Positions 15,240-62,982 of a DNA stretch of 64,000 bases are shown here, in pieces. Made by a program: the position numbers and the translations under genes. This stretch comes from Escherichia phage FL04: sequence record PP358550; one strand, 5' to 3'. Within the stretch, counting starts at the first letter, position 1. Every line of letters begins with the position of its first letter. The notes under the pieces were generated by a model. That model searched no databases, had not been told where the DNA came from, and saw only the letters and a program-made list of their open reading frames with translations.

Positions 15240-15602
15240 ATGCTAGGTCATTCTAAAATAGAAGATTGCTCATTCAGAGCAATGAAAGATGATTTTTCGG
15301 TCCTGTACGCGTCTATCCGAGAGTTGTTTGTAGATTTTAAGCAATTCAGGGAATACAAAGGCGTTAAGATGCGGGAGTGGGTATTCTGGCCTTTCTATAT
15401 CATTACTCTGTTTTCTATGGTATTTTGTTTTGTCGGGATCACTATCGCTAGTTTTGTCACTTGCGTTTTCCTGATTATCAGGTGTATCATGTTTGCTTTG
15501 ATTGCTGCCCCGTTTATTGTGTCAATCCTTCCGTTAAAATGGCTATTGGATTGGGCTGATAAATCTGATAAAGTAAAGAATGTGATTTGTAAGCGTGTAT
15601 GA
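15240..15602 (+). CDS. hypothetical membrane protein (120 aa)
   Basis: Two long hydrophobic segments (WVFWPFYIITLFSMVFCFVGITIASFV, MFALIAAPFIVSILPL). Confidence 0.55.
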   Translation: MLGHSKIEDCSFRAMKDDFSVLYASIRELFVDFKQFREYKGVKMREWVFWPFYIITLFSMVFCFVGITIASFVTCVFLIIRCIMFALIAAPFIVSILPLKWLLDWADKSDKVKNVICKRV

Positions 15603-15609
15603 GGTGAAG

Positions 15610-16956
15610 ATGAATAAATCAGTTACTTACCGCAGCCTTGAAAGCATTGTACATAATGAAGCTAAGGAATATGCGATCTATTCTGCCGAGGAACGCGGGA
15701 TTCCTCAATTAGTAGATGGGCTTAAACCAGTGCAACGCTTTGTTATGGAATGTGCTTTGCAAAAGAGTAAAGGCGACCGTAAGAAATTCCGTAAGATGGC
15801 AGATATTGGATCTGGTGTTGCTGAATTGGGGTATCACCACGGCGAAACTAATGCCGTAGAAGCCGGATCACTCATGGCGAATACATGGAGCAATAATACT
15901 CCACTGCTTGACGGTCAAGGTAACTTCGGATCTCGTTTAGTCCAGAAAGCAGGTGCAGCACGTTATATCTTTGCTCGTGTGCATGAAAACTTCTTTAAAA
16001 TCTATAAAGATATGAATTGCGCACCTAAGCACGAAGATCTGGAACACATCCCGCCAGCGTTCTACTTGCCAGTTGTGCCAATGGTATTGGCTAATGGTAT
16101 TAGTGGTATTGCTACAGGGTATAAAACTGACATTTTACCGCATTCACTGGAAAGCCTCATTGAATGCACAGAGCTAGCACTTGCCGGAAAACTGGATAAA
16201 GAACCTAGTGTTCAATTCCCGAAATTCACGGGTAAAGTTATCCCGCGAGATGATCGCGATGGTGTGATTCTTGAGGGTACATATGAACTAAACGGAAAGA
16301 CTAAGCTGACAATATCAGAAGTTCCTTATAAGTTCGACCGTGAGGAATATGTAGCGGTACTGGATGCACTGGAAGAAAAAGATCTGATTGTCTCATATAA
16401 TGACCGTTGCTCTAAGGACGGATTCAGATTTGAAGTAACACTGAAACGCGATTATTTCAAAAGCGAAGATGAATCCGCTCGACATGAGCAAATCATGAAG
16501 GATTTTAAACTAACGCAGTTAGTAGCCCAGAATATCGTAGTGGTTAATGAACGTGGTTTAGTAGAAGTATTCGAGAAAGCGAGCGATCTGATCCGTCGAT
16601 TCGTCGAAATCCGATTAGGGTATGTCGATAAACGCATTGAATTGATGCAAGCGGAAACGCTGGAAGCATACAATTATGCAATGGCTAAAGCCGAATTTAT
16701 CGATCGCGTAATTAAGGGCGAAATCGAGCTACAGGGCAAGAAAAAGGCCGAGGTAATGCAATCCATCAATGGACATGAAAAACTGCGTCCATACGCCGAT
16801 AAGCTAGTTTCTATGCCATTGTATAGCGTTACTCAAGAAGAGTATGATCGACTGGTCAAAGATGCCGATAAACATCATAGTGAATATGAGTATTGGACAA
16901 AGACGACCGCAATGAAGGAATATAAGAAAGATCTTAAAGAACTTAAGAAGGGTTGA
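15610..16956 (+). CDS. 52: DNA topoisomerase II medium subunit gp52 (GyrA-like)
   Basis: N-terminal AIYSAEERGIPQLVDGLKPVQRFV matches gp52/GyrA N-terminus; ATG 15610 after GAGGTGAAG. Confidence 0.9.
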   Translation: MNKSVTYRSLESIVHNEAKEYAIYSAEERGIPQLVDGLKPVQRFVMECALQKSKGDRKKFRKMADIGSGVAELGYHHGETNAVEAGSLMANTWSNNTPLLDGQGNFGSRLVQKAGAARYIFARVHENFFKIYKDMNCAPKHEDLEHIPPAFYLPVVPMVLANGISGIATGYKTDILPHSLESLIECTELALAGKLDKEPSVQFPKFTGKVIPRDDRDGVILEGTYELNGKTKLTISEVPYKFDREEYVAVLDALEEKDLIVSYNDRCSKDGFRFEVTLKRDYFKSEDESARHEQIMKDFKLTQLVAQNIVVVNERGLVEVFEKASDLIRRFVEIRLGYVDKRIELMQAETLEAYNYAMAKAEFIDRVIKGEIELQGKKKAEVMQSINGHEKLRPYADKLVSMPLYSVTQEEYDRLVKDADKHHSEYEYWTKTTAMKEYKKDLKELKKG

Positions 16957-17156
16957 TTATGAAAGAATATCCAGAAGGCGGTTATATTGCATTTCTGTAC
17001 AACAATAAAAAGATTGTGCCAATTGTCGTTGAAACACTGGAAGAATCCAACCGGATCACCAGTGAATCTCTGAGCAAATTAGCAGAAATGACAAACACGC
17101 CAGAACACAGAGCAAAGATCGACAGCTTGATGAAAGAATTATCAGAGAGGAAATAA
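16953..17156 (+). CDS. hypothetical protein (67 aa)
   Basis: Start overlaps gp52 stop (ATGA). Confidence 0.5.
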   Translation: MIMKEYPEGGYIAFLYNNKKIVPIVVETLEESNRITSESLSKLAEMTNTPEHRAKIDSLMKELSERK

Positions 17157-17159
17157 ATT

Positions 17160-17555
17160 ATGACTGAACGACGCATCACTTCAAATGGTTTGGGTACTCA
17201 TCATGCATGGATGGTTGACCCAGACAAAAATCCTTATAAACTTTACGATACAACAATTAAACCGTGGAATAATGGTGTGTGGAAAACACCACCCACAACA
17301 GCACCTATTATGACTGATCCGAAACCGATTAGCCCGATGGCGGAACCAGTACAGATCAAGCCGTTACCTTACCAGATAACGACGAATAGCATCACCAACA
17401 AACAAGAAAATGATATTGATATGATCTACGAGATGATTAAACTTTGGCGTGATGTTTATCTGGGTGTTCTATGCAACACAGATAAAAGTGCACATGCGGC
17501 AGCGGTGCTGGCATCTCATGCAGTAGACGAAGCCAAAAAGAAATTTAGTAAGTAA
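17160..17555 (+). CDS. hypothetical protein (131 aa)
   Basis: Followed by strong terminator. Confidence 0.55.
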   Translation: MTERRITSNGLGTHHAWMVDPDKNPYKLYDTTIKPWNNGVWKTPPTTAPIMTDPKPISPMAEPVQIKPLPYQITTNSITNKQENDIDMIYEMIKLWRDVYLGVLCNTDKSAHAAAVLASHAVDEAKKKFSK

Positions 17556-17565
17556 CTGACTATTA

Positions 17566-17592
17566 AGCCGATCCTTGTGGTCGGCTTTTTTA
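17566..17592 (+). terminator. rho-independent terminator
   Basis: AGCCGATC-CTTGT-GGTCGGCT hairpin plus TTTTTT; near-identical hairpin in opposite orientation at 28821-28853. Confidence 0.75.
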
Positions 17593-17605
17593 TTTGAAAA
17601 GTTGT

Positions 17606-17634
17606 TTGACTTCCATAATCCAGCATTGCATAAT
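17606..17634 (+). promoter_or_regulatory. sigma70-type early promoter
   Basis: TTGACT-17-CATAAT. Confidence 0.55.
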
Positions 17635-17665
17635 ACACACAGTGAAACAAAAAGGAGATTCAAAA

Positions 17666-17872
17666 ATGAAAGTACGTTGCATTGAAACCGATCACATCAA
17701 TTATAGCTTTGGTGTCGGGTGTGATTATGATGTTGATGTATTCACGGACAATAGCGGAAACACATTTGATGTAGTTCATGGTGACTATATTTGGTTTTAC
17801 TTTGACAAACAACAACTTACTGCAACCAAACGAAACGGTGATCCGGTAGCAAAATTTGAAATAATCGAATAA
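17666..17872 (+). CDS. hypothetical small protein (68 aa); paralog family with 47020 and frameshifted 44474
   Basis: AAGGAGA-N7-ATG; MKVRC...FGVG..YD... KFEIIE pattern shared with 47020..47238. Confidence 0.6.
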   Translation: MKVRCIETDHINYSFGVGCDYDVDVFTDNSGNTFDVVHGDYIWFYFDKQQLTATKRNGDPVAKFEIIE

Positions 17873-17878
17873 AATCTA

Positions 17879-17913
17879 TTGACACTGAATAATGGGAGTA
17901 GTAATATACTCCC
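17879..17913 (+). promoter_or_regulatory. PeSL-type early promoter (hairpin GGGAGTA-N6-TACTCCC overlapping -10)
   Basis: TTGACA 17879-17884, 17-nt spacer, TAATAT 17902-17907 inside hairpin. Confidence 0.65.
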
Positions 17914-17938
17914 ATTCCAAACAAAAGGAGAATCAAAG

Positions 17939-18211
17939 ATGAGCAACGAAAACAGCAAAGTGTTAGCAATTGCAAATAAAGTAGGTTACTGGAAATGCTG
18001 GGATGATATGGAGAAATTAGGCGGTCGCTATCTCGATAACTTAGAGTTGCATTATTGCCAAGCGCGTAATGCAGAAGTTGCTGGAGTAGCAATTGAAGAT
18101 ATCCCGTCTAAGGTCTTCGGATTCTCTAAAGATGATACTCTAGAATATGTTTTCAAGGCTGTTATGGATCAAGCATGGGAAGACGCAGAGACACGCGCTC
18201 TTGATTGGTGA
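17939..18211 (+). CDS. hypothetical protein (90 aa)
   Basis: AAGGAGAATCAAAGATG initiation region. Confidence 0.6.
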   Translation: MSNENSKVLAIANKVGYWKCWDDMEKLGGRYLDNLELHYCQARNAEVAGVAIEDIPSKVFGFSKDDTLEYVFKAVMDQAWEDAETRALDW

Positions 18212-18215
18212 TAAT

Positions 18216-18386
18216 ATGAACTGGTATAAAATTTGGAAAAATCAGGTGGAGGCTTATCTAGGGTATAAGCCCACCGACAAAGAATTACTTGATGCAATGT
18301 ATGAAGACGGACTAAATCCGAAAGTAGCCGCGCAAGAATACGCGGAATGGGTGAAGGTCGAAGATAACCTAAAGAGGAAACTATGA
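18216..18386 (+). CDS. hypothetical small protein (56 aa)
   Basis: ATG 18216 just after upstream stop. Confidence 0.45.
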   Translation: MNWYKIWKNQVEAYLGYKPTDKELLDAMYEDGLNPKVAAQEYAEWVKVEDNLKRKL

Positions 18387-18607
18387 AGAAAATGATTGCG
18401 ATTGCTTTGTTGGCGAGCGCATGTACTGTAAATGCTAACACCGCAGCGATGGTCGCGGCTGTAACTGCCGCAAATGCTTCCGTTATGGCATCGCAAGAGG
18501 CAGCACGCCAGCAAGCACAACAAGAAGCCAAGCGAAAAGCACATGAGGCGACGAAAAATTTTCACGAAAATAACAAAAAACTAGTTGACGCCAAAGGTCA
18601 TCGGTAG
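18383..18607 (+). CDS. hypothetical secreted protein (74 aa)
   Basis: Signal-peptide-like N-terminus MKKMIAIALLASACTVNA; Ala/Gln-rich mature part. Confidence 0.55.
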   Translation: MKKMIAIALLASACTVNANTAAMVAAVTAANASVMASQEAARQQAQQEAKRKAHEATKNFHENNKKLVDAKGHR

Positions 18608-18613
18608 TATTAT
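18585..18613 (+). promoter_or_regulatory. PeSL-type early promoter (degenerate hairpin)
   Basis: TTGACG-17-TATTAT; imperfect GGTAGTA/TACTCCC repeat. Confidence 0.55.
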
Positions 18614-18647
18614 ACTCCCATACCGAAACGAACTGGAGGAAATAAAA

Positions 18648-18890
18648 ATGGTTAAAGTGAATGTTATCGAAGTTGCACTGTACGACGCTGGGATCTTCCT
18701 GAATGAAAAAGAAGCTGCCGTGCTCGATGAACTGAAAACTGTTTTTGTTCCTGTAGTCGAAGACGATGAAGCAATCAAAATCGCTTCTCGTAAACTGTCC
18801 CGCGAAGCATTCGACATGATTGATCCGGTTTTCAAAGTTATGCACGAATGCGCGGTTATGATGACCGAAGAAGAAGCGAAAAATTTCTAA
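18648..18890 (+). CDS. hypothetical protein (80 aa)
   Basis: GGAGGAAATAAAAATG initiation region. Confidence 0.6.
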   Translation: MVKVNVIEVALYDAGIFLNEKEAAVLDELKTVFVPVVEDDEAIKIASRKLSREAFDMIDPVFKVMHECAVMMTEEEAKNF

Positions 18891-18897
18891 AAACTAG

Positions 18898-18932
18898 TTG
18901 ACGTAAAGATAAGGGAGTAGTAATATACTCCC
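18898..18932 (+). promoter_or_regulatory. PeSL-type early promoter
   Basis: TTGACG-17-TAATAT with GGGAGTA/TACTCCC hairpin. Confidence 0.65.
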
Positions 18933-18955
18933 ATACCAAACGAAAGGAGAATCAC

Positions 18956-19168
18956 ATGAAATCTATTGAGCAAGTAGTGACTGAATTTATGAGCTACGAA
19001 GGAAACCGCATCTTTGGACGTTCTCAAGTTCGCGAGATCGTAGAAGAAGTTGCGGGAGAGTTTGCGGAATCTGGTCACGTTATCACGCAAGAACGTAAAG
19101 AAGAAGCAGTAAGCCAGATCATGGCTATGCAGAAAATGCGTATTAATGCACGAGCGGGTAAAAATTAA
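18956..19168 (+). CDS. hypothetical protein (70 aa)
   Basis: AAGGAGAATCACATG initiation region. Confidence 0.6.
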   Translation: MKSIEQVVTEFMSYEGNRIFGRSQVREIVEEVAGEFAESGHVITQERKEEAVSQIMAMQKMRINARAGKN

Positions 19169-19178
19169 AAAATAGTTG

Positions 19179-19207
19179 TTGACAGGGGATCGCCGATCCC
19201 CTATAAT
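19179..19207 (+). promoter_or_regulatory. PeSL-type early promoter with palindromic 17-nt spacer
   Basis: TTGACA-GGGGATCGCCGATCCCC-TATAAT. Confidence 0.7.
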
Positions 19208-19238
19208 GAACTCATCAAGACAACGAAGGAGAATCAAA

Positions 19239-19394
19239 ATGAAACATACTCACAAATTAATGGTTAAATTTGAAGGCGCTAAGGGATATGAACGTTACGG
19301 TGTATTCTTCTCTGAGGATGATGCATGGGATGCTGGTTTGGCGACGTTCGCCGAGCACAACAACATTGAAGACTTTACTGTAGAAGAAATTTAA
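19239..19394 (+). CDS. hypothetical small protein (51 aa)
   Basis: AAGGAGAATCAAAATG initiation region. Confidence 0.5.
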   Translation: MKHTHKLMVKFEGAKGYERYGVFFSEDDAWDAGLATFAEHNNIEDFTVEEI

Positions 19395-19401
19395 AAAGTA
19401 T

Positions 19402-19436
19402 TTGACATCGGATTAAGGGAGTAGTAAGATACTCCC
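19402..19436 (+). promoter_or_regulatory. PeSL-type early promoter
   Basis: TTGACA-17-TAAGAT with GGGAGTA/TACTCCC hairpin. Confidence 0.65.
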
Positions 19437-19464
19437 ATCAAGACAAAACACTGAGGAATATATT

Positions 19465-20211
19465 ATGAAAAACATTATCGCTGCTATCGTTCTTTCTGCT
19501 ACTGCTTTCGGTGCTAACGCTGCGTCCTTTGATTGCGCTAAAGCTACTACCAAATCAGAGAAGTTTATTTGTGCTAATGAGTCTATCTCCGCACTGGACT
19601 CTAAACTTCATGAGGTGTATGTTAAGGCTGTTAAGATTGATCCGTCTCTGAAACAAGAGCAACGAAACTGGAATAAAACTGTTCGTGATACAATGATCAA
19701 TATCGGGCAGATTCAGCCACTGGAGGCTGTATATAACGCTCAAATCCAAAACTTGATGAATGTATTACCTAAAGAAGAAAGCGATTCAGAGACTTCTGCG
19801 AAGGTTGAAGAAGAACAACCGAAACAGGAAGCAAAAGTGGTAGAAGAACCGAAGGTCGAAACTTTTACCTATCAATGCACCGTTCGTTATGAGTGGAGTA
19901 TGAAAGATGGAATTTCCACAAAAATTAAAGAGGCTCCACTGTATGCAAAATATGGAAACCAGCCAGGGGATCTTAAAGTAACCATTAAAAATGGGAAGAT
20001 GGTTGATTTTGTATACATTGATGAATACAACGTACACAAAGCAAACGTACAAGAAACCGTTATGACTAAAGGCGGGTTTTATAAGAATGTTGGCAAGAAA
20101 GATCTATATGAATACTCCGTTTTCGAACCAAACGACGGAACTATTCGATTTGAAAAACGTCATCCTACATTCGGTGGCGCAATTGATGTAGATCAATACG
20201 TTTGCAAGTAA
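19465..20211 (+). CDS. secreted DUF1311/LprI-like domain protein
   Basis: 248 aa; signal peptide MKNIIAAIVLSATAFGANA; FDCAKATTKSEKFICANESISALDSKLHEVY...QRNWNK pattern typical of DUF1311 (LprI-like); acidic linker; C-terminal Cys-containing domain. Confidence 0.6.
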   Translation: MKNIIAAIVLSATAFGANAASFDCAKATTKSEKFICANESISALDSKLHEVYVKAVKIDPSLKQEQRNWNKTVRDTMINIGQIQPLEAVYNAQIQNLMNVLPKEESDSETSAKVEEEQPKQEAKVVEEPKVETFTYQCTVRYEWSMKDGISTKIKEAPLYAKYGNQPGDLKVTIKNGKMVDFVYIDEYNVHKANVQETVMTKGGFYKNVGKKDLYEYSVFEPNDGTIRFEKRHPTFGGAIDVDQYVCK

Positions 20212-20222
20212 GAGGTTAAATT

Positions 20223-20495
20223 ATGCAATTCAATAACATGAAGATTACAAAAGATTGGTGGAAGGCGATGCAAGATACTCCAGAAACCAAATTAAGCGAG
20301 ACAACAACCACAATACAAGTTGATTACGAAGATCCGAAAGACATATACAGAGAGCTTATAAAAGCTGGAAACTATCAAACACCAGATGGCCTTATTGACA
20401 TGATGGTTAAAGGTCTGTATAGTGGTAAAAATCCAGATATTTTACCGTGGTACGAGGGATATTTTAAAACATATCGTGACCACAACCGAAAATAA
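20223..20495 (+). CDS. hypothetical protein (90 aa)
   Basis: GAGG RBS. Confidence 0.55.
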   Translation: MQFNNMKITKDWWKAMQDTPETKLSETTTTIQVDYEDPKDIYRELIKAGNYQTPDGLIDMMVKGLYSGKNPDILPWYEGYFKTYRDHNRK

Positions 20496-20518
20496 TTTGT
20501 TGACGTGAGGATTATATT

Positions 20519-20710
20519 ATGGTAATTTTTAATCGTGATGGTATTATAGTTCGACAGCATCCATTCCTTGAATACTATCAGGTTGAACAATGGGGATATG
20601 GAGATTGCAACCGCTCATACGGTCAAAGCTGGGGATACCGTACAGTTTTTGAATCAACTAATATTGACAAAGTACGACAGAAAGTTTTAGAACTTCTTAA
20701 CGATAAGTGA
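20519..20710 (+). CDS. hypothetical protein (63 aa)
   Basis: GTGAGGATTATATTATG initiation motif. Confidence 0.55.
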   Translation: MVIFNRDGIIVRQHPFLEYYQVEQWGYGDCNRSYGQSWGYRTVFESTNIDKVRQKVLELLNDK

Positions 20711-20720
20711 GGATTACATC

Positions 20721-21089
20721 ATGGAAATTCAAAACAATTACGAAAAATGTGTTATTATCAATGATCTGCAACGTCAATTGCATCATTACGAAACCGATTA
20801 TAAAACAGCAACCAAAACCGGAAAGCTGAAAGTGTGGGAAGTCTGGTATAACCGGAACTATCTGGGAAGCATCCACAAACTTGATCGCAGTGATGTTTAT
20901 ACAATGCATGTGGGCGCGTGTGGCGAATCGGATGTAGCATCTAATTTCATGGAAGCACTTGCATTCTATGTAGAATATCTGGTAGACTATATCGAGTTGG
21001 AAGAGGAAGTGGTAGAATTGCTTCCTCCACCGGAAGAAGCGCCGGAAGCAACGATCCTGAAAGCATTAAAGAAAATCTTTGTTAAGTGA
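20721..21089 (+). CDS. hypothetical protein (122 aa)
   Basis: GTGAGGATTACATCATG initiation motif. Confidence 0.55.
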   Translation: MEIQNNYEKCVIINDLQRQLHHYETDYKTATKTGKLKVWEVWYNRNYLGSIHKLDRSDVYTMHVGACGESDVASNFMEALAFYVEYLVDYIELEEEVVELLPPPEEAPEATILKALKKIFVK

Positions 21090-21097
21090 GGTGAACT

Positions 21098-21430
21098 ATG
21101 AAAAATGTACTGATTGTGTGGGAACTGATTCCAGAAACTACTGAATTATATATGGTACAGGTTGATAATAAAGAATTTGAAATTCTGAAACGCGTCAACT
21201 GCAAATATATTAACATTGATGACATGACCCCAGAAATGGACTATGTAAACTATGCTCTCATGCAGCCTAGTTGGATTATGGATGAAACCAAAGCAGACGC
21301 CGAATCGCTGGGTGTGCCGGAAGAAGTATTAGCGAAATGGCATCAATTCAAAGTTGAAATAAAAGAGGGTGAACCGTTTATTCCTAGCGGTATGATCGAT
21401 GCGGTGATTGTAACAGGTTTTCATCTGTAA
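21098..21430 (+). CDS. hypothetical protein (110 aa)
   Basis: GTGAGGTGAACTATG initiation motif. Confidence 0.55.
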   Translation: MKNVLIVWELIPETTELYMVQVDNKEFEILKRVNCKYINIDDMTPEMDYVNYALMQPSWIMDETKADAESLGVPEEVLAKWHQFKVEIKEGEPFIPSGMIDAVIVTGFHL

Positions 21431-21442
21431 GGACATTATACA

Positions 21443-21775
21443 ATGTTTAACTATGACAAATATGAATCATGGAAAGCGACCGAATTGAAAGAGGCAGCGC
21501 GGTTAATCACACCGCGTCTTTATCCGGTGTTGTTTAGCGCCGATAAAGTAACAAGGGAAGTAAACGAGGCTCTATCGGTTTTAGGCTATCTGATCGATAA
21601 AGTAGAGAAAACATCGGTATTCACAAATAGTGTAGAATATACCCGGTATCGAGTGTTTTTAGATTCCTTGCTCGTTGTCATTAAGGCACTAAATGATCAT
21701 AACTACACCATGAACATGACGAAAATAATCGACGAAGCAAGAATTATGACAGAGAATATTTTCGGTAAATTTTGA
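21443..21775 (+). CDS. hypothetical protein (110 aa), tandem paralog of 21890..22213
   Basis: C-terminal ...DEARIMTENIFGKF versus paralog ...NDARKLAENVYGKF. Confidence 0.55.
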   Translation: MFNYDKYESWKATELKEAARLITPRLYPVLFSADKVTREVNEALSVLGYLIDKVEKTSVFTNSVEYTRYRVFLDSLLVVIKALNDHNYTMNMTKIIDEARIMTENIFGKF

Positions 21776-21889
21776 TTATGAAAGATGATGAATCATTGAA
21801 AATTGCACTGGTTATGCTATTACAAGGTATAGAATTAGCAAACCACGAAAAAATGTTGACACAACAGCGTGAAATTATGAGAGGTGATT

Positions 21890-22213
21890 ATGATCGAGTT
21901 TGAAATTGACAACTTTCACGAAAAAGCAGAAGACCTAACCAAAATTTTGATTAGTCGAGGTGCATATAATACGAAAGATATTATAAAAGAAGTTAATGTA
22001 GCGATGGACGCGATCCGAAAGGAATTTAAACATATTTCAGCGATTGGAGAAAATGGTCATCTTGAAGATGTTGAGCTGGTAGCACTGCGACGCTATTACT
22101 TCTTTGTTGATTGCATCATTGATCTAGCTAAAAATTATAGTCATTACATGAAAGATATTGTAAACGATGCACGTAAGTTGGCAGAGAATGTTTACGGGAA
22201 GTTTCCAGAATGA
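21890..22213 (+). CDS. hypothetical protein (107 aa), tandem paralog of 21443..21775
   Basis: ATG 21890 after GAGGTGA; shared C-terminal motif. Confidence 0.55.
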   Translation: MIEFEIDNFHEKAEDLTKILISRGAYNTKDIIKEVNVAMDAIRKEFKHISAIGENGHLEDVELVALRRYYFFVDCIIDLAKNYSHYMKDIVNDARKLAENVYGKFPE

Positions 22214-22458
22214 AATTAGAACAAGCGATTGTATACTTTGAGATGGGCTATGATATTGCTCGTGTAGAGTGGGAAGATGGTGATTTTGTCCGATTGATTG
22301 ATCTTCCAGAAACAGCTATTGCACTGGTCAAAGTAGAAAACGGCATACAACGAAATTACGCGTTTTCTGACGAAGACAAACAAGCCGATGACTGGTACGC
22401 TACCTGTTTTCATCATACAGCGTCAAAATGTGATTCAGGGGCTTCTATGCGCCAATAA
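22210..22458 (+). CDS. hypothetical protein (82 aa)
   Basis: Start overlaps upstream stop; last + strand gene before convergent terminator. Confidence 0.5.
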   Translation: MKLEQAIVYFEMGYDIARVEWEDGDFVRLIDLPETAIALVKVENGIQRNYAFSDEDKQADDWYATCFHHTASKCDSGASMRQ

Positions 22459-22490
22459 AAAGAAGGGGAGGCCGAAAGGCTTCCCCTTTA
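22455..22490. terminator. bidirectional terminator between convergent early (+) and late (-) units
   Basis: GGGGAGGCC-GAAA-GGCTTCCCC hairpin; T-run on - strand side (TTCTTTTTAT), short T-run on + side. Confidence 0.65.
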
Positions 22491-22492
22491 AG

Positions 22493-23149
22493 TTATCTAA
22501 TCCTTCCGAGGATTCTGGCAGATTGATTGCAAAGAGTATCTAAATTCTCAATGTCAATATCCGGTTTATTCTTCCATGAAATGGCGATACTACCAGAATA
22601 GACATTATCGAGATTGAATATAGGACAAGAATACATGAAACCTATATCGATATTCTCTAATTTCTTTTCTCTTGATGGAATATACTGGAAATCTTTATCG
22701 GTAAAATAGGATTTACCTAAAAGATGCCTACGATATTCTTCACTCGTTTTATTGATAGGGAATCCGCCTAAATTTTTTTCATCGATTGTATGCGGTAGCT
22801 TTCCTTCATATGCCACCAAATCAACAAAATAGTTTAGGTTTTTCGGACGAAAACTAAAAACAGCAGAAAAATCGGCATCAGCCGACACATGAACTATCTG
22901 TAACTGCTCCTGTGCTGCATTATCAAAATTGCGGTCTTTCTCTACCTGGAGAACGTGAGCATAAGTCTCATAACGAGTCTCTTTATACAAGGCAAATAAC
23001 TCGTTTTTACTATAGACGACAAATGCTAATATGGACAACACGACGGCAGCAAAAACACGAAGTACGAGCAACTCCGTGCTTTTAGTTGTGAAAATAGCGC
23101 GCAGGACATTTGAGATAGCAAAGTCTTTCCCTTTTTCAGAAACTTGCAT
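22493..23149 (-). CDS. t: holin T
   Basis: 218 aa, same length as T4 holin; conserved blocks EQLQIVH.S..ADFSAV.SFRPKNLNYFVD..AYEGKLP, MYSCP.FNLDN.Y.G, ARILGR; single N-terminal TM. Confidence 0.9.
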   Translation of the reverse strand: MQVSEKGKDFAISNVLRAIFTTKSTELLVLRVFAAVVLSILAFVVYSKNELFALYKETRYETYAHVLQVEKDRNFDNAAQEQLQIVHVSADADFSAVFSFRPKNLNYFVDLVAYEGKLPHTIDEKNLGGFPINKTSEEYRRHLLGKSYFTDKDFQYIPSREKKLENIDIGFMYSCPIFNLDNVYSGSIAISWKNKPDIDIENLDTLCNQSARILGRIR

Positions 23150-23182
23150 ATAATGCCCTAAGATAACTATGACAGTGTACTC

Positions 23183-23422
23183 TTATTTAGGTACTTGACT
23201 ATCACTATTTTTATTTTGCTCGTTGCTATCTTCTGACTGATCTTTATTAAACTCCTTATAAAGTTCTTCCACAAAACGATCATCAATTGGCGTATTGGTA
23301 TAAGCCGCAAGACGACGAGCGCAATAGAAGAAAATTTTAGTGAGCATCTTTTCACTAATTAACTTTGACAATAATTTCATTCCGAAATTAGACAAAGCAC
23401 CAATGACGATATTATAGACCAT
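23183..23422 (-). CDS. hypothetical small protein (79 aa) between adhesin and holin genes
   Basis: AAGGAG 7 nt upstream of ATG on - strand; hydrophobic N-terminus, acidic C-terminus. Confidence 0.5.
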   Translation of the reverse strand: MVYNIVIGALSNFGMKLLSKLISEKMLTKIFFYCARRLAAYTNTPIDDRFVEELYKEFNKDQSEDSNEQNKNSDSQVPK

Positions 23423-23487: not shown

Positions 23488-24270
23488 CTAAACAGCCGGT
23501 CCGTAAATAGCTCCGCGATTTTGCCACGTTGGAGAAGACCCTATAACAGCATATCCAGAATCGCCGCCATTATATTCAGATCCTTGACCACGAATATTAC
23601 ATCTACCTCCTGCGGCGCCTACCTCACCACCGCTTCCACCATTATAGATACCGTTCACGGACCCCGAACCGGGCGCATAAAGAGTACCAGCAGTTGCGCC
23701 TGATTGCATATCAATAGATCCGCCCGGCGCACCAAACGGACGCCCACCGCCACCGCCAAAGGTTAATCTCATTTGTGAAAAAGGAGAATAATACCCACCA
23801 CCGCCACCGCCACCGCCACCTGCAATAGCTCCACCATTATTAATTCTTAGTCTCCCACCAATATCATTTTGAATACAATGCCCACCGGCTGATCCAGGAC
23901 CATTGCTACCGCCATTCCCGCCACGACCATACATCGTTACGCCATGTATATTCAACTGAACATATTCATTCGGTGTATCTCCGTACATAAAGAATAAAGG
24001 AACATCTTTAGAATATGATACTAAATCTCCAGTGATATTAAACACTATAGGTGTACTACCTGCTTCAAAGCATCTATCACGGAACCACTGACCGTTGAAG
24101 TTATGGTCTGCACCAAGTGTATGAATAATTTCTCGCGAGCGACCTGCAAATTGACTCATCCAGCAAGGAACACCCAATCTTAATTGACCAGCCGCTTGAC
24201 TCATCCATCTTTGTCCTGTTTCATTTGCGGCTGAACTTCCAATCCAACCAGGAACACCAACTACTGCCAT
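23488..24270 (-). CDS. 38: receptor-recognising tail fibre adhesin gp38 (T2-type, glycine-rich motifs)
   Basis: 260 aa; N-terminus [48 protein letters not shown] matches T2-type gp38 attachment domain; poly-Gly motifs ([11 protein letters not shown]). Confidence 0.88.
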
Positions 24271-35603: not shown

Positions 35604-36128
35604 ATGACTGAACAGAAAAAAGAAAAAGTAGTATTTGACGAAAATGTACACGGAAATACCCTGGCACAACTGATTAAAGAAGCCAGCGATCAGAAAACCA
35701 TTCAAGAAGCATACGGCGATAAGATCAAAGAGATCAAACAGCGTGCTAAAGAAGAATTAGGCGTAGACGGTAAAATGTGGGGCATTCTGTTTAAACTGTG
35801 TATCACCAGCAACAGCGCGAAACCTTCGAAGCAGAACGCGATGAAGCGGCAGAACTCTATGATCGGGTGTTCAATGCTTAATGAACATGCGGTAAAAGCC
35901 GCGAATAAAACAGCAAACGGTCTTGCAATCGAAAAACTGGTTGTTGAAGAGGGATTGACTTATCTTGAAGCGACCACTCAGTTTGTAGAGGAAAACTCTA
36001 TCGAATATGGTCACTATCAGAAATATATTCCGGTGTCCATTATTGACAAGATCACACAAGAATGTATAGTAAATAGAACGCTCAGGAAGGGAGTGATCGA
36101 CGAACCGACCAACACTCTCGATATTTAA
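35604..36128 (+). CDS. hypothetical protein (174 aa); positional equivalent of T4 gene 33
   Basis: Located between rnh-proximal gene and gp59; C-terminus ...TNTLDI; function not verifiable from sequence. Confidence 0.5.
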   Translation: MTEQKKEKVVFDENVHGNTLAQLIKEASDQKTIQEAYGDKIKEIKQRAKEELGVDGKMWGILFKLCITSNSAKPSKQNAMKRQNSMIGCSMLNEHAVKAANKTANGLAIEKLVVEEGLTYLEATTQFVEENSIEYGHYQKYIPVSIIDKITQECIVNRTLRKGVIDEPTNTLDI

Positions 36129-60027: not shown

Positions 60028-62079
60028 ATGTTTAACTTAGAAATCGACGATCTAATGATTGAATCTTTCGAGAAATGGCTGTTGACGGAAGAGGAAGAAA
60101 ACTTTGGCAGTATTGCTCCGGTACAGTGCTTAAAGCCTAAGCAGAATCCTAAACAGCTTTTTGCAGTACAGACACGCGATAAAGATGTGATTGTCCGTCT
60201 TTGTAACTTCACCAACAAAACACCTAAAATCATTCGTATGGGTGACAAGACCGCACATGTTGTACTGTGCGAAATGAACAAAAGCGGTCGTATTGTACAG
60301 CTTAAAAATGGTCTAGGCGATAACCCGATTGCAGTTATGTCAAGTGCTTTTGATGTGGTTATGGAAACAGCCCGTAAAGCGCAATTAGACGCTGTTATGT
60401 TCCGTTTTAACGTATCCCGCATGAAAGGTAAGACCGAACTGGTTAAGCGCGTTATAGAGCGTTTGGTGCGTCGTACACCGAAGTTTGAAGTATTCCAGCA
60501 GGAAGTAATGACCAGCAAAAAGATCGCTTTAGTTGTTGTCAAGCGTCGCGGGATGGCGATTGATAAGATTAAAGGGATTAAACTTGATGAATCCTTGTTC
60601 ACTAAAGTAGAAAGTGATTTAGGTGATCGCTGGGTATCTAAGGCTACTGGTGAATCTCTGACTAAAGATGAGGCATATGCGGCTAGTCTTGTGTCAGAAG
60701 AAGAACGAAACGCGGAAGCAGAACAACGAGTAGCGGCTAAATCTCGTTTGACTAAAGAAGAAATGCTGAAAACTCAAGCGACCTATAACAGCGACTATGT
60801 GAATCATCCAGAAAAAATTAATCTTAAACCGGAAGAAGATATCACCGAAGCAGAACCTAAGAAACAGTTTAATACTCTGATTGACCGTCAAGCCTTAGAA
60901 CGTTCAACCGCTCGTTCTCTGAATGACTGGACAAGTGATATTATCACTCGCTATGGTTTCATGCGTACTATTTTTGAAAGCGAAGCCGATGCAAAATACG
61001 CAGTAAGCGAACTGGTAAAAGTTCAGGATCAATATGATCCATTGTCTGCGGAAGTTATCGCAGCATCAATCAAACGCTTAAAAGAAATCATGAGCGAGGA
61101 AGTATTCGAAAACAAGATCACCGCCCTGGCAATGGATCGAGTAGACCAGTCTATGCCAGCAGATGTAAAAGCTGAAATGCTGCGTAGTCACATCACCCAG
61201 ATTAAAACCGATGCCCTACGTAATGTTGCTTCCGGTATGTTTGAAGCAATTGCTAGCAACATGGGTGAAATGATGGCAGATATTGATCTTGATCTGCCGG
61301 GCGCGGAAGGTTTTGTGTTGAGCGAATATGCCGATGCAGCATACATCAATATGAACAACTTCCTAACCGACCGTAAGCTGGAAGAGTTTGAAGGCATCGC
61401 AGATCCAGAAGAATTGGTCAAGATGTGCGATGCATTGGATAATGCCTTCTCCAACTATGGCGTTAAACTTGATCCGGGTACTATTCTGTATCGTGGTATG
61501 GACTTCCGGTCGCAAATGTGGGAAACTGCACGTAAGCAAAAAGCGTTTTACTTTAAAAACTATGTGAGCACTTCCCTTGCACCTAACATTTTTGGCGGCT
61601 GGAATGCAAACGTGGCTAGTGCCGTTGCTGGTGTTGATTCTATGGCTGGCTCTCGCGGTGAAGGTGGCGCTAATGTTGCTTTCTCCATTGCTGGCGCGGA
61701 AAACATCCCTGTATTGCCAGTAGGTAACAAAGCATTTGCTTACAAAGAATGCGAGATTTTACTTCCTCGCGGTGTTGTGTTATCCTTTGATACGGTAACT
61801 CGTGCTACGGCATCGACGGATTCACAAGAAACTTATTACATTGAGGCACATATTATGAACAAAAATGAACTGGCAGCATTACAAGAATCTGGCGAGATGA
61901 TCGCGGACGGTGATGCATTCATCCGTGAAGGTGTTATTAAACCTGCTTCTGACCTGTCTTTCTCCAGCTTCATTAGCGAAGCTAAAACCGAACGTAAGAA
62001 AGCAGATAAGGCAACTCTACGTCAGCTTATCGCTGATCTGGTATCTGTAGACGCAATGCCAGATAAATTTAAAATGTAA
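60028..62079 (+). CDS. alt: ADP-ribosyltransferase Alt
   Basis: 683 aa (T4 Alt 682 aa); C-terminal catalytic region with R (LYRGM), STS (YVSTSL) and ExE (KECEILLPRG) motifs. Confidence 0.8.
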   Translation: MFNLEIDDLMIESFEKWLLTEEEENFGSIAPVQCLKPKQNPKQLFAVQTRDKDVIVRLCNFTNKTPKIIRMGDKTAHVVLCEMNKSGRIVQLKNGLGDNPIAVMSSAFDVVMETARKAQLDAVMFRFNVSRMKGKTELVKRVIERLVRRTPKFEVFQQEVMTSKKIALVVVKRRGMAIDKIKGIKLDESLFTKVESDLGDRWVSKATGESLTKDEAYAASLVSEEERNAEAEQRVAAKSRLTKEEMLKTQATYNSDYVNHPEKINLKPEEDITEAEPKKQFNTLIDRQALERSTARSLNDWTSDIITRYGFMRTIFESEADAKYAVSELVKVQDQYDPLSAEVIAASIKRLKEIMSEEVFENKITALAMDRVDQSMPADVKAEMLRSHITQIKTDALRNVASGMFEAIASNMGEMMADIDLDLPGAEGFVLSEYADAAYINMNNFLTDRKLEEFEGIADPEELVKMCDALDNAFSNYGVKLDPGTILYRGMDFRSQMWETARKQKAFYFKNYVSTSLAPNIFGGWNANVASAVAGVDSMAGSRGEGGANVAFSIAGAENIPVLPVGNKAFAYKECEILLPRGVVLSFDTVTRATASTDSQETYYIEAHIMNKNELAALQESGEMIADGDAFIREGVIKPASDLSFSSFISEAKTERKKADKATLRQLIADLVSVDAMPDKFKM

Positions 62080-62096: not shown

Positions 62097-62125
62097 TTGA
62101 CTCAAACGGGGACTAGTTTTATACT
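62097..62125 (+). promoter_or_regulatory. early promoter overlapping a hairpin/terminator after alt
   Basis: TTGACT-17-TATACT; imperfect inverted repeat CGGGGACTAGT/ACTAGCCCCG followed by TTTTCTG. Confidence 0.55.
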
Positions 62126-62157: not shown

Positions 62158-62982
62158 ATGTTCAAGAAATTACAGGATTTTCGTCTTTCAGAAGAATCAC
62201 GCGAATCAATGATGGAACGTATGGATAATTACATCGAAACATATGACATTGAGGGGATTAATGGTTACATGATCACTGAGATGATCAGCGATCAGATTAA
62301 CTTTGATGATTATGTGAAGGTTATCCGCTTCCTTGAGCGCGAGACACAAGATTATGGATTTGTCAAGAAAATCATTAATGTGATGTATGAAGTACACTCC
62401 GAAGACTTTGGAGATAATGTATTCAAACATTACAAACATAACAACATAACCCCAGCAGAATATAATGCAATCTGTGATTATGTGTCTGAACAATACGAAT
62501 GGGTAAATGGTGCTCTCTTAGGGGAAGAAGACATGACCGATGAGATATCAGAGATTGTTGATTTGATGGATTGTGTCATGGATAAAACCGAAAAGTTAAA
62601 CGGTACTCTTTATCGAGGTCAACATCTTGACATTCAGACAATAGAGCGTATCATTGAAGATAAGGAGTTTACCTTTAAAAACTTTGTATCTACCAGCATG
62701 ACACCGATCATCTTTGGAGGATGGCTATCAAACAGCACTAGCCTTTATTGTGAGAATCGATATGAATCAATGACCGGAAAGATGCAACATTCTTGTAATG
62801 TATCATGGGTAATTGACGTAAAAGATCATAAAGGTTTTGTTGTTGGGTCAATTGCATGGAACCCTTGCGAATGTGAAGTAATTTTACCGCGAGGGACTTG
62901 CGTCAAGGTAAACGACGTAGTAGAATCTTTCGGCGATGAGAATCGTAGACAATTTACAATTTTCGGTGAGGTGACTAAATGA
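62158..62982 (+). CDS. Alt-like ADP-ribosyltransferase paralog (274 aa)
   Basis: LYRGQ, FVSTSMTPIIFGGW, CECEVILPRGT mirror the Alt catalytic motifs. Confidence 0.65.
   Translation: MFKKLQDFRLSEESRESMMERMDNYIETYDIEGINGYMITEMISDQINFDDYVKVIRFLERETQDYGFVKKIINVMYEVHSEDFGDNVFKHYKHNNITPAEYNAICDYVSEQYEWVNGALLGEEDMTDEISEIVDLMDCVMDKTEKLNGTLYRGQHLDIQTIERIIEDKEFTFKNFVSTSMTPIIFGGWLSNSTSLYCENRYESMTGKMQHSCNVSWVIDVKDHKGFVVGSIAWNPCECEVILPRGTCVKVNDVVESFGDENRRQFTIFGEVTK

Follow-up and report, generated by a model that had tools for sequence, protein, structure and literature searches.

The gene 52 to t interval of Escherichia phage FL04 is probably a hyperplastic region of early ORFans in an RB49-type lineage without motA and asiA

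In phage T4, motA and asiA, the genes of the sigma-appropriation pair, lie between gene 52 and the holin gene t; they encode the activator of middle transcription and an anti-sigma70 factor. For RB49 and phi1, the absence of motA and asiA, the missing middle promoters and the presence of regions built from promoter cassettes called PeSLs (promoter-early stem-loops) are already published. The passages of Nolan 2006 (PMC1524935) that bear on this point, citing Desplats 2002 and their own work, report neither a motA orthologue nor a middle-promoter consensus in RB49, and name AsiA only for RB69, 44RR, Aeh1 and KVP40. Hinton 2010 (PMC2988021) places RB49 neither among the phages that have both genes nor among those that have asiA only. 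PeSLs and the shuffling of ORFans in RB49 and phi1 were described by Arbiol 2010 (PMC2839356), who measured promoter and terminator activity for these elements, and the description was extended by Comeau 2014 (PMC4122927). Here, we report on the gene 52 to t interval of Escherichia phage FL04, found in a 64,000-nucleotide stretch of its sequence (record PP358550), hereafter the window. We consider, with a probability of about 0.9, that this interval is a Krischvirus hyperplastic region of early ORFans, driven by sigma70, in a lineage that has neither motA and asiA nor MotA-box promoters.

Judged from its sequence, the source phage is a Krischvirus, that is, an RB49-type T4-like coliphage. Positions 15500-23200, which hold the interval and its flanks, matched 58 phage records, all of them RB49-type Krischvirus, at 90-99% nucleotide identity (95-99% in 55 of the 58). 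The best-matching records were vB-Eco-KMB43 (hereafter KMB43), LF73P4, ELT4 and RB49, with approximately 97% identity to RB49, KMB43 and ELT4. The segment is collinear with RB49, at 97% identity across 90-97% of its length, and both ends of the window also align to RB49 (97-99%), at about 12.6 kb and 110.5 kb. The window spans the RB49 coordinate origin and contains rIIB, 52, t, tail-fibre genes, 32 and alt. The rest of the complete RB49 genome (12000-111999, approximately 100 kb) was searched as a stand-in for the sequence beyond the window; in KMB43, the search covered the early half (12-62 kb), the structural half (62-114 kb) being left out.

On its left side, the interval is anchored by gene 52, encoding the medium subunit of DNA topoisomerase II (15595-16956, plus strand; a 453-amino-acid open reading frame (ORF) that aligns to RB49p269, gene 52), and on its right side by the holin gene t (22493-23149, minus strand; Pfam Phage_holin_T, 1e-60; RB49p254). 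The original prediction, made from the letters of the window before this analysis, had named these same flanks, and its statement that they enclose motA and asiA in T4 is borne out by the T4 record, where the order is 52, motA.1, motA, arn.4, arn.3, arn.2, arn.1, arn, asiA.1, asiA, t. Its count of about 20 small ORFs was close to the 18 that we found, numbered here from left to right and all on the plus strand. Fifteen of them are orthologous to RB49p268 to p255, and three are extra with respect to RB49 (17666-17872, 18383-18607 and 18648-18890). Thirteen match only PHROGs of unknown function, and ORF6 and ORF7 have no PHROG match.

None of these small ORFs resembles MotA or AsiA, as had been read from the letters, and this was the outcome of tblastn, Pfam, PHROGs, profile models and hhalign alike, with positive controls. 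Using T4 AsiA and MotA as queries, tblastn gave a best E of 0.2 against the window and of 0.4 against the window plus the RB49 remainder, and the T4 controls scored 1.5e-56 and 1.5e-139. Pfam (E<=1) and PHROGs (E<=0.01) assigned none of the 18 ORFs to an AsiA family (phrog_1166) or to a MotA family (phrog_1345; Pfam MotA_activ and MotCF); in the same PHROG run, T4 AsiA was assigned to phrog_1166 (1e-41) and T4 MotA to phrog_1345 (2e-98). We also built hidden Markov models (HMMs) of AsiA, from seven sequences with identities down to about 29% (T4, ZZ1, Aeromonas 31, PspYZU05, PSTRCR_121, AdhaG2 and Astolliot), and of MotA, from four sequences. Run on 2672 six-frame stop-to-stop ORFs of at least 30 amino acids, drawn from the window, from RB49 (12-112 kb) and from the T4 locus, these models singled out the T4 controls alone (5e-40 and 8e-98). 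The same models found no AsiA or MotA in KMB43 (12-62 kb) or in one Krischvirus metagenome contig, and the UPEC01 proteins, which are outside the training set, were recovered at 1e-30 and 4e-45. Finally, hhalign of each of the 18 ORFs against the AsiA and MotA alignments gave probabilities of at most 1%, the MotA arm being run without a control; Astolliot AsiA, omitted from the profile, was recovered at 97% probability.

Gene order points the same way. The 52-motA-asiA-t arrangement is also present in Acinetobacter phage ZZ1, Providencia phage PSTRCR_121 and Gaprivervirus UPEC01, and in Pseudomonas phage PspYZU05 motA and asiA adjoin t, gene 52 being outside the stretch examined. Indeed, asiA is close to t or 52 in T4, ZZ1, PspYZU05, PSTRCR_121, UPEC01, phage 31, AdhaG2 and Astolliot. 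At the corresponding places in the window, the neighbour of t is a Tad2-like gene and the neighbours of 52 are ORFans. On the evidence of these searches, motA, asiA and the other genes of the T4 interval, with the exception of arn.4, are not present in the lineage of the source phage.

Three candidate matches were considered and rejected. The AsiA tblastn match at 61855-62070 (24% identity over 76 amino acids, E 0.63) falls inside the C-terminus of a 683-amino-acid Alt-like ADP-ribosyltransferase. In a blastp search of a database of only 27 sequences, ORF6 matched linker residues 80-126 of MotA (E 5e-5); this match was rejected because it reflects only the composition of a charged linker rich in A, K, E and Q, and neither the HMMs nor hhalign support it. 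The best non-control match of the AsiA HMM (E 0.016-0.044) lies within the gp43 DNA polymerase of RB49 and KMB43 and is spurious.

The MotA-box promoters are likewise missing. The pattern TGCTTNA-N11-13-TANNNT (TGCTT at -30, with the -10 box 11-13 nucleotides on) is not enriched in the window, where one match was observed against 2.9-3.0 expected, nor in the two stretches of the RB49 remainder (one against 2.3 and one against 2.2 expected). Positions 1-50000 of T4, taken as the control since the 7-kb T4 locus gave no positive control, contained 16 matches against 3.8 expected, and two variant patterns had the same outcome. The original prediction had asked for this check together with a homologue search, and had proposed that the phage lacks or relocates the MotA-dependent middle mode, as in RB49-type phages. 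No homologue was found in the window, the RB49 remainder or the early half of KMB43, and the boxes were not enriched in the first two of these, which supports "lacks" and gives no support to "relocates". It had also named, as the finding that would overturn it, a small ORF proving to be a divergent AsiA or MotA; the hhalign probabilities of at most 1% for all 18 ORFs show no such case. With respect to late transcription, no TATAAATA late promoter was found within the interval. As for the late machinery, a gp33 domain is encoded in the window, and gp55, gp45 and RpbA are encoded in RB49 and KMB43.

What the interval does contain are PeSL cassettes. The claim that each small ORF has its own sigma70-type promoter was too broad: only six of the 18, about a third, are preceded by a PeSL, all within 17.56-19.46 kb. 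ORFs 1-2, 5-6 and 11-18 have no such cassette and lie tightly against one another or overlap. The anatomy of a PeSL is an A-rich stretch, TTGACA, a 17-nucleotide spacer, TATAAT and a G/C hairpin, and downstream of each one come a Shine-Dalgarno sequence and then an ORFan. The six -35 boxes (17606, 17879, 18585, 18898, 19179 and 19402) belong to predicted promoters that match sigma70 at 9-12 of 12 positions, all with 17-nucleotide spacers. For five of the six hairpins, folding gave -11.9 to -14.5 kcal/mol (z scores of -3.2 to -5.3).

All six cassettes are on the plus strand and they differ in where the hairpin sits. In PeSL-1 (17565-17665), a hairpin followed by a T run (17565-17587, -12.7 kcal/mol) lies upstream of TTGACT-17-CATAAT (17606-17634) and its Shine-Dalgarno sequence. 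PeSL-5 (19170-19238) has a perfect TTGACA-17-TATAAT (19179-19207), whose spacer is taken up by the hairpin GGGGATCGCCGATCCCC (-12.8 kcal/mol). A third type, GGGAGTAG-TAATAT-ACTCCC, folds across the -10 box in the cassettes with -35 boxes at 17879, 18898 and 19402, at -11.9 to -14.5 kcal/mol. These are PeSL-2 (17869-17935; TTGACA-17-TAATAT at 17879-17907; hairpin GGGAGTAG..ACTCCC, -14.5 kcal/mol), PeSL-4 (18888-18955; TTGACG-17-TAATAT at 18898-18926; -11.9 kcal/mol) and PeSL-6 (19392-19464; TTGACA-17-TAAGAT at 19402-19430; -11.9 kcal/mol). PeSL-3 (18575-18647) carries TTGACG-17-TATTAT (18585-18613) with a hairpin of -4.7 kcal/mol (z -0.8). The placements upstream of the -35 box, in the spacer and over the -10 box fit the subclasses of PMC2839356, and the elements combine a near-consensus sigma70 promoter, a G/C stem-loop and a hyperplastic context with insertions and deletions, as expected of PeSLs.

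Three further sigma70-like sites have no hairpin: one that matches at 11 of 12 positions inside ORF11 (20395-20423), TTGACG-17-TAATTT at 20500-20528, whose -35 box is in an intergenic gap and whose -10 box overlaps the start of ORF12, and a weak one within an ORF (17215). On the plus strand of the interval, the pattern TTGACN-N16-18-TANNNT was observed eight times against about 0.45 expected (scaled from shuffles); in the whole window there are 59 matches, of which 55 lie on the plus strand, where 10.5 matches in total would be expected. A scan with a loose promoter consensus showed no enrichment (22 found, 25 expected), and only the near-consensus sites stand out. Outside the interval, the same two types of PeSL sequence reappear at 44.4, 46.9-47.5 and 55.3-59.4 kb of the window.

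We found two insertions with respect to RB49, and a PeSL borders each of them on one side or on both. The first (17670-17905) consists of ORF3 and a PeSL, and the repeat at its breakpoint lies in the part of the flanking PeSLs that runs from the -10 box to the Shine-Dalgarno sequence. The second (18374-18876) comprises ORF6, PeSL-3 and ORF7. Only 13 of the 58 Krischvirus records carry ORF3 at full length, and this ORF has partial matches (73-76% nucleotide identity) in the approximately 50-kb Shigella and E. coli phages Sfin-1, Shfl1 and phi2457T, which we take to be T1-like. This suggests that the ORF3 cassette has been exchanged between unrelated phage families. The ORF6-PeSL-3-ORF7 insert is found at a coverage of at least 80% in 27 of the 58 records; in the remaining ones, insertion 2 is matched by its PeSL alone, elsewhere in the genome.

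Altogether, we propose that the interval would be a series of early, non-essential ORFans on the plus strand, which is the early one, transcribed by the host sigma70 RNA polymerase with no need for a phage factor. Transcripts would arise partly by read-through from gene 52 and partly from starts at the six PeSLs, whose hairpins would attenuate transcription arriving from upstream. The transcription unit would stop at a strong hairpin that it shares with t, a late gene running towards it. By recombination between repeated PeSLs, ORF cassettes would be gained or lost, which would account for the two cassettes that are extra relative to RB49. Such a scheme would fit the two-class programme as reported, with early transcription by sigma70 and late transcription by gp55, gp33 and gp45. 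The gene content, the lack of homologues and of Mot-box enrichment, the anatomy of the cassettes and the differences from relatives were read from the sequences themselves; for the activity of PeSLs as promoters and terminators, for the early timing of the region and for the way in which recombination proceeds, the scheme leans on what Arbiol et al. described.

Several points weigh against this interpretation. The promoter and terminator functions of the PeSLs are carried over from RB49 and phi1 (Arbiol et al.) and would have to hold in the source phage. One of the six hairpins, that of the cassette at 18585, is degenerate, and the left junction of insertion 2 (18374) lies away from any PeSL. 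About 100 kb of the genome is outside the window, and the absence of motA and asiA there would rest on RB49, which is complete, and on the early half of KMB43. Finally, since all 18 ORFs are of unknown function, sequence and fold searches leave room for a non-homologous modifier of RNA polymerase.

This last point leads to the alternative that survives best, although we hold it to be improbable: one of the ORFans of the interval would be a non-homologous substitute that remodels or inhibits the sigma70 RNA polymerase and brings about a delayed-early switch without AsiA, MotA or Mot boxes. The ORFs of the interval, whose function is unknown, sit in the syntenic place of motA and asiA, and for KVP40, a phage without MotA, the same idea was brought up by Hinton 2010 (PMC2988021). 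The candidates would be any of the small ORFs or, in particular, the predicted four-helix-bundle paralogues ORF15 and ORF17 (21443-21775 and 21890-22213). These two belong to phrog_9457 and are restricted to Krischvirus-like phages; homologues of ORF17 form only four clusters among 5.8 billion proteins, all from Krischvirus-like contigs with the same layout. ORF17, the only ORF that we modelled, is small and confidently predicted to be all-helical (AlphaFold2 model, a four-helix bundle with pLDDT 86 and pTM 0.81). It was modelled as a candidate AsiA analogue; a Foldseek search of the PDB with this model returned nothing at E<=0.001, and AsiA was not among the matches listed. Positive support for a substitute is missing, the hhalign probabilities of at most 1% also speak against it, and a second class of promoter motif was neither sought nor seen. 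Desplats 2002 reportedly describes only two promoter classes in RB49 itself. The narrower proposition that a Krischvirus-specific early ORFan, for example one of the phrog_9457 pair, is a new non-homologous modifier of RNA polymerase appears a little less probable still. If it were true, an ORFan would give Krischvirus a delayed-early switch without sigma appropriation.

A true homologue of AsiA or MotA that has diverged past the reach of sequence methods is very unlikely. AsiA is short and diverges fast: the KVP40 protein is 27% identical to that of T4 (PMC2988021), and that of Astolliot, at 29% identity, reaches an E of only 0.2 by tblastn. However, this same Astolliot protein is recovered by the HMMs and, when left out of the profile, by hhalign at the 97% given above, which none of the 18 ORFs approaches. 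Moreover, the best six-frame E in the window, RB49 and KMB43 is the 0.016 inside DNA polymerase, and no ORF of the interval has the size of MotA (about 210 amino acids, two domains) except a secreted LprI-like protein.

The move of motA and asiA to a part of the genome beyond the window deserves no more credence: the window covers only 64 kb of a genome of about 164 kb, and motA lies more than 4 kb from asiA in Aeromonas phage 31, so that the pair can be separated, but there is no match in the RB49 remainder or the KMB43 early half, Mot boxes are not enriched, and an AsiA tblastn search returned 1173 phage records of which 60 evenly spaced ones include no Krischvirus, although the 58 near-identical Krischvirus records would presumably make up a block too large for such sampling to miss.

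We therefore return to the hyperplastic region of early ORFans, whose individual ORFs, all on the plus strand, are as follows. ORF1 (16959-17156, 65 amino acids; RB49p268, phrog_15105), which has no promoter of its own, and ORF2 (17160-17555, 131 amino acids; RB49p267, phrog_15644) follow gene 52. ORF3 (17666-17872, 68 amino acids; phrog_9122) is the first cassette absent from RB49, and it precedes ORF4 (17936-18211, 91 amino acids; RB49p266, phrog_7287) and ORF5 (18216-18386, 56 amino acids; RB49p265, phrog_8655). ORF6 (18383-18607, 74 amino acids), which has a signal-peptide-like N-terminus, and ORF7 (18648-18890, 80 amino acids) are both absent from RB49. They are followed by ORF8 (18956-19168, 70 amino acids; RB49p264, phrog_14966) and ORF9 (19239-19394, 51 amino acids; RB49p263, phrog_19699). 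ORF10 (19465-20211, 248 amino acids; RB49p262, phrog_14799) has a signal peptide and an N-terminal LprI/DUF1311 domain, which is lysozyme-inhibitor-like (Pfam PF07007, 24.1 bits against a cutoff of 22), and it may be a periplasmic early protein.

Downstream of ORF10 come ORF11 (20223-20495, 90 amino acids; RB49p261), ORF12 (20519-20710, 63 amino acids; RB49p260), the arn.4-like ORF13 (20721-21089, 122 amino acids; RB49p259) and ORF14 (21098-21430, 110 amino acids; RB49p258, phrog_4658). ORF15 (110 amino acids; RB49p257) and its paralogue ORF17 (107 amino acids; RB49p256) are separated by ORF16 (21772-21903, 43 amino acids; RB49p256.1, phrog_17009). The last one, ORF18 (22210-22458, 82 amino acids; RB49p255, phrog_1048), fills the t-adjacent slot that asiA has in T4. 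Its Tad2-like (anti-Thoeris, DUF2829) domain scores just over the Pfam cutoff (PF11195, 27.9 bits against 25), and a sequence search of the PDB gave no match; the gene is kept in RB49 and in metagenome contigs of Krischvirus. ORF18 and t converge, and the hairpin that lies between them at 22462-22489 folds at -23.2 kcal/mol on the plus strand (z -4.6) and at -16.8 kcal/mol on the minus strand (z -3.1), and is likely a bidirectional terminator. It was missed by a generic promoter and terminator scan and was picked up by reading and folding the sequence.

ORF13 (phrog_1594, 9e-26) is the sole gene common to this interval and that of T4. It is 29% identical to T4 arn.4 (blastp), and the domain PF26821 Phage_T4_Y16F was found on its orthologue. 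We also observed that T4 arn.4 (NC_000866, 4128-4457, minus strand) is annotated with 68 amino acids that are the C-terminal part of a 110-amino-acid open frame; in this long frame, it matches phrog_1594 over its full length (1e-53). The start of arn.4 in RefSeq may be placed too far downstream, and no ATG, GTG or TTG start for the longer frame was identified.

Other features of the window can be noted. Just beyond the interval, the immediate neighbour of gp37 is a GP38 tail-fibre adhesin gene (23488-24270, minus strand; Pfam 4e-71). In RB49 no gene occupies this position, the gp38-like gene RB49p079 (48-57% identical) being in another region, and the adjoining end of gp37 diverges from RB49 (73% nucleotide identity). 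This difference looks like the swap of a host-range module. At 35604-36128 (plus strand), a single ORF of 174 amino acids joins a DsbA domain (residues 24-66) to the gp33 late-coactivator domain (residues 99-173). RB49 has two overlapping genes at this site, and a 2-nucleotide TG insertion near 35800 fuses the frames here; the single ORF may be genuine, as a DsbA-gp33 fusion or truncation, or may come from a sequencing error. Finally, two adjacent genes on the plus strand (60028-62079 and 62158-62982; Pfam ADPrib_exo_Tox) encode ADP-ribosyltransferases, the Alt-like protein of 683 amino acids mentioned above and one of 274 amino acids, the latter gene with its own predicted, hairpin-bearing sigma70 promoter at 62097.

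T4-like phages do not all follow the early/middle/late transcription cascade of T4. The appropriation of sigma by MotA and AsiA would be an accessory module, and a whole genus would manage without it on many strong sigma70 promoters. This point, as well as the role of PeSLs in the shuffling of ORFans, was settled by work on RB49 and phi1 from 2002 to 2010, and the window contributes only one further isolate, whose set of cassettes differs slightly. For annotation, the absence of motA and asiA is no anomaly in Krischvirus genomes.

In comparison with T4, the interval has the same flanking genes, small genes that are oriented as gene 52 and converge on t, and one common family, arn.4/phrog_1594. 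It differs in that the source phage has no motA, asiA, arn, arn.1-3, asiA.1 or motA.1, and in having PeSL sigma70 promoters in place of Mot-box promoters. KVP40, nt-1, Aeh1 and phage 65 (PMC2988021), in which MotA is not recognisable, are likewise without the full sigma-appropriation pair, but phages of this kind keep asiA, which in AdhaG2 and Astolliot lies just downstream of 52, whereas Krischvirus has neither gene. The closest described systems are the hyperplastic regions of RB49 and phi1 (PMC2839356; PMC4122927), which belong to the same genus and the same locus. The differences from these concern gene content only, with the three extra ORFs in two insertions and the GP38 gene beside gp37; 15 of the 18 ORFs are orthologous, the design of the cassettes is identical and, in both cases, ORFans are inserted or deleted between close relatives.

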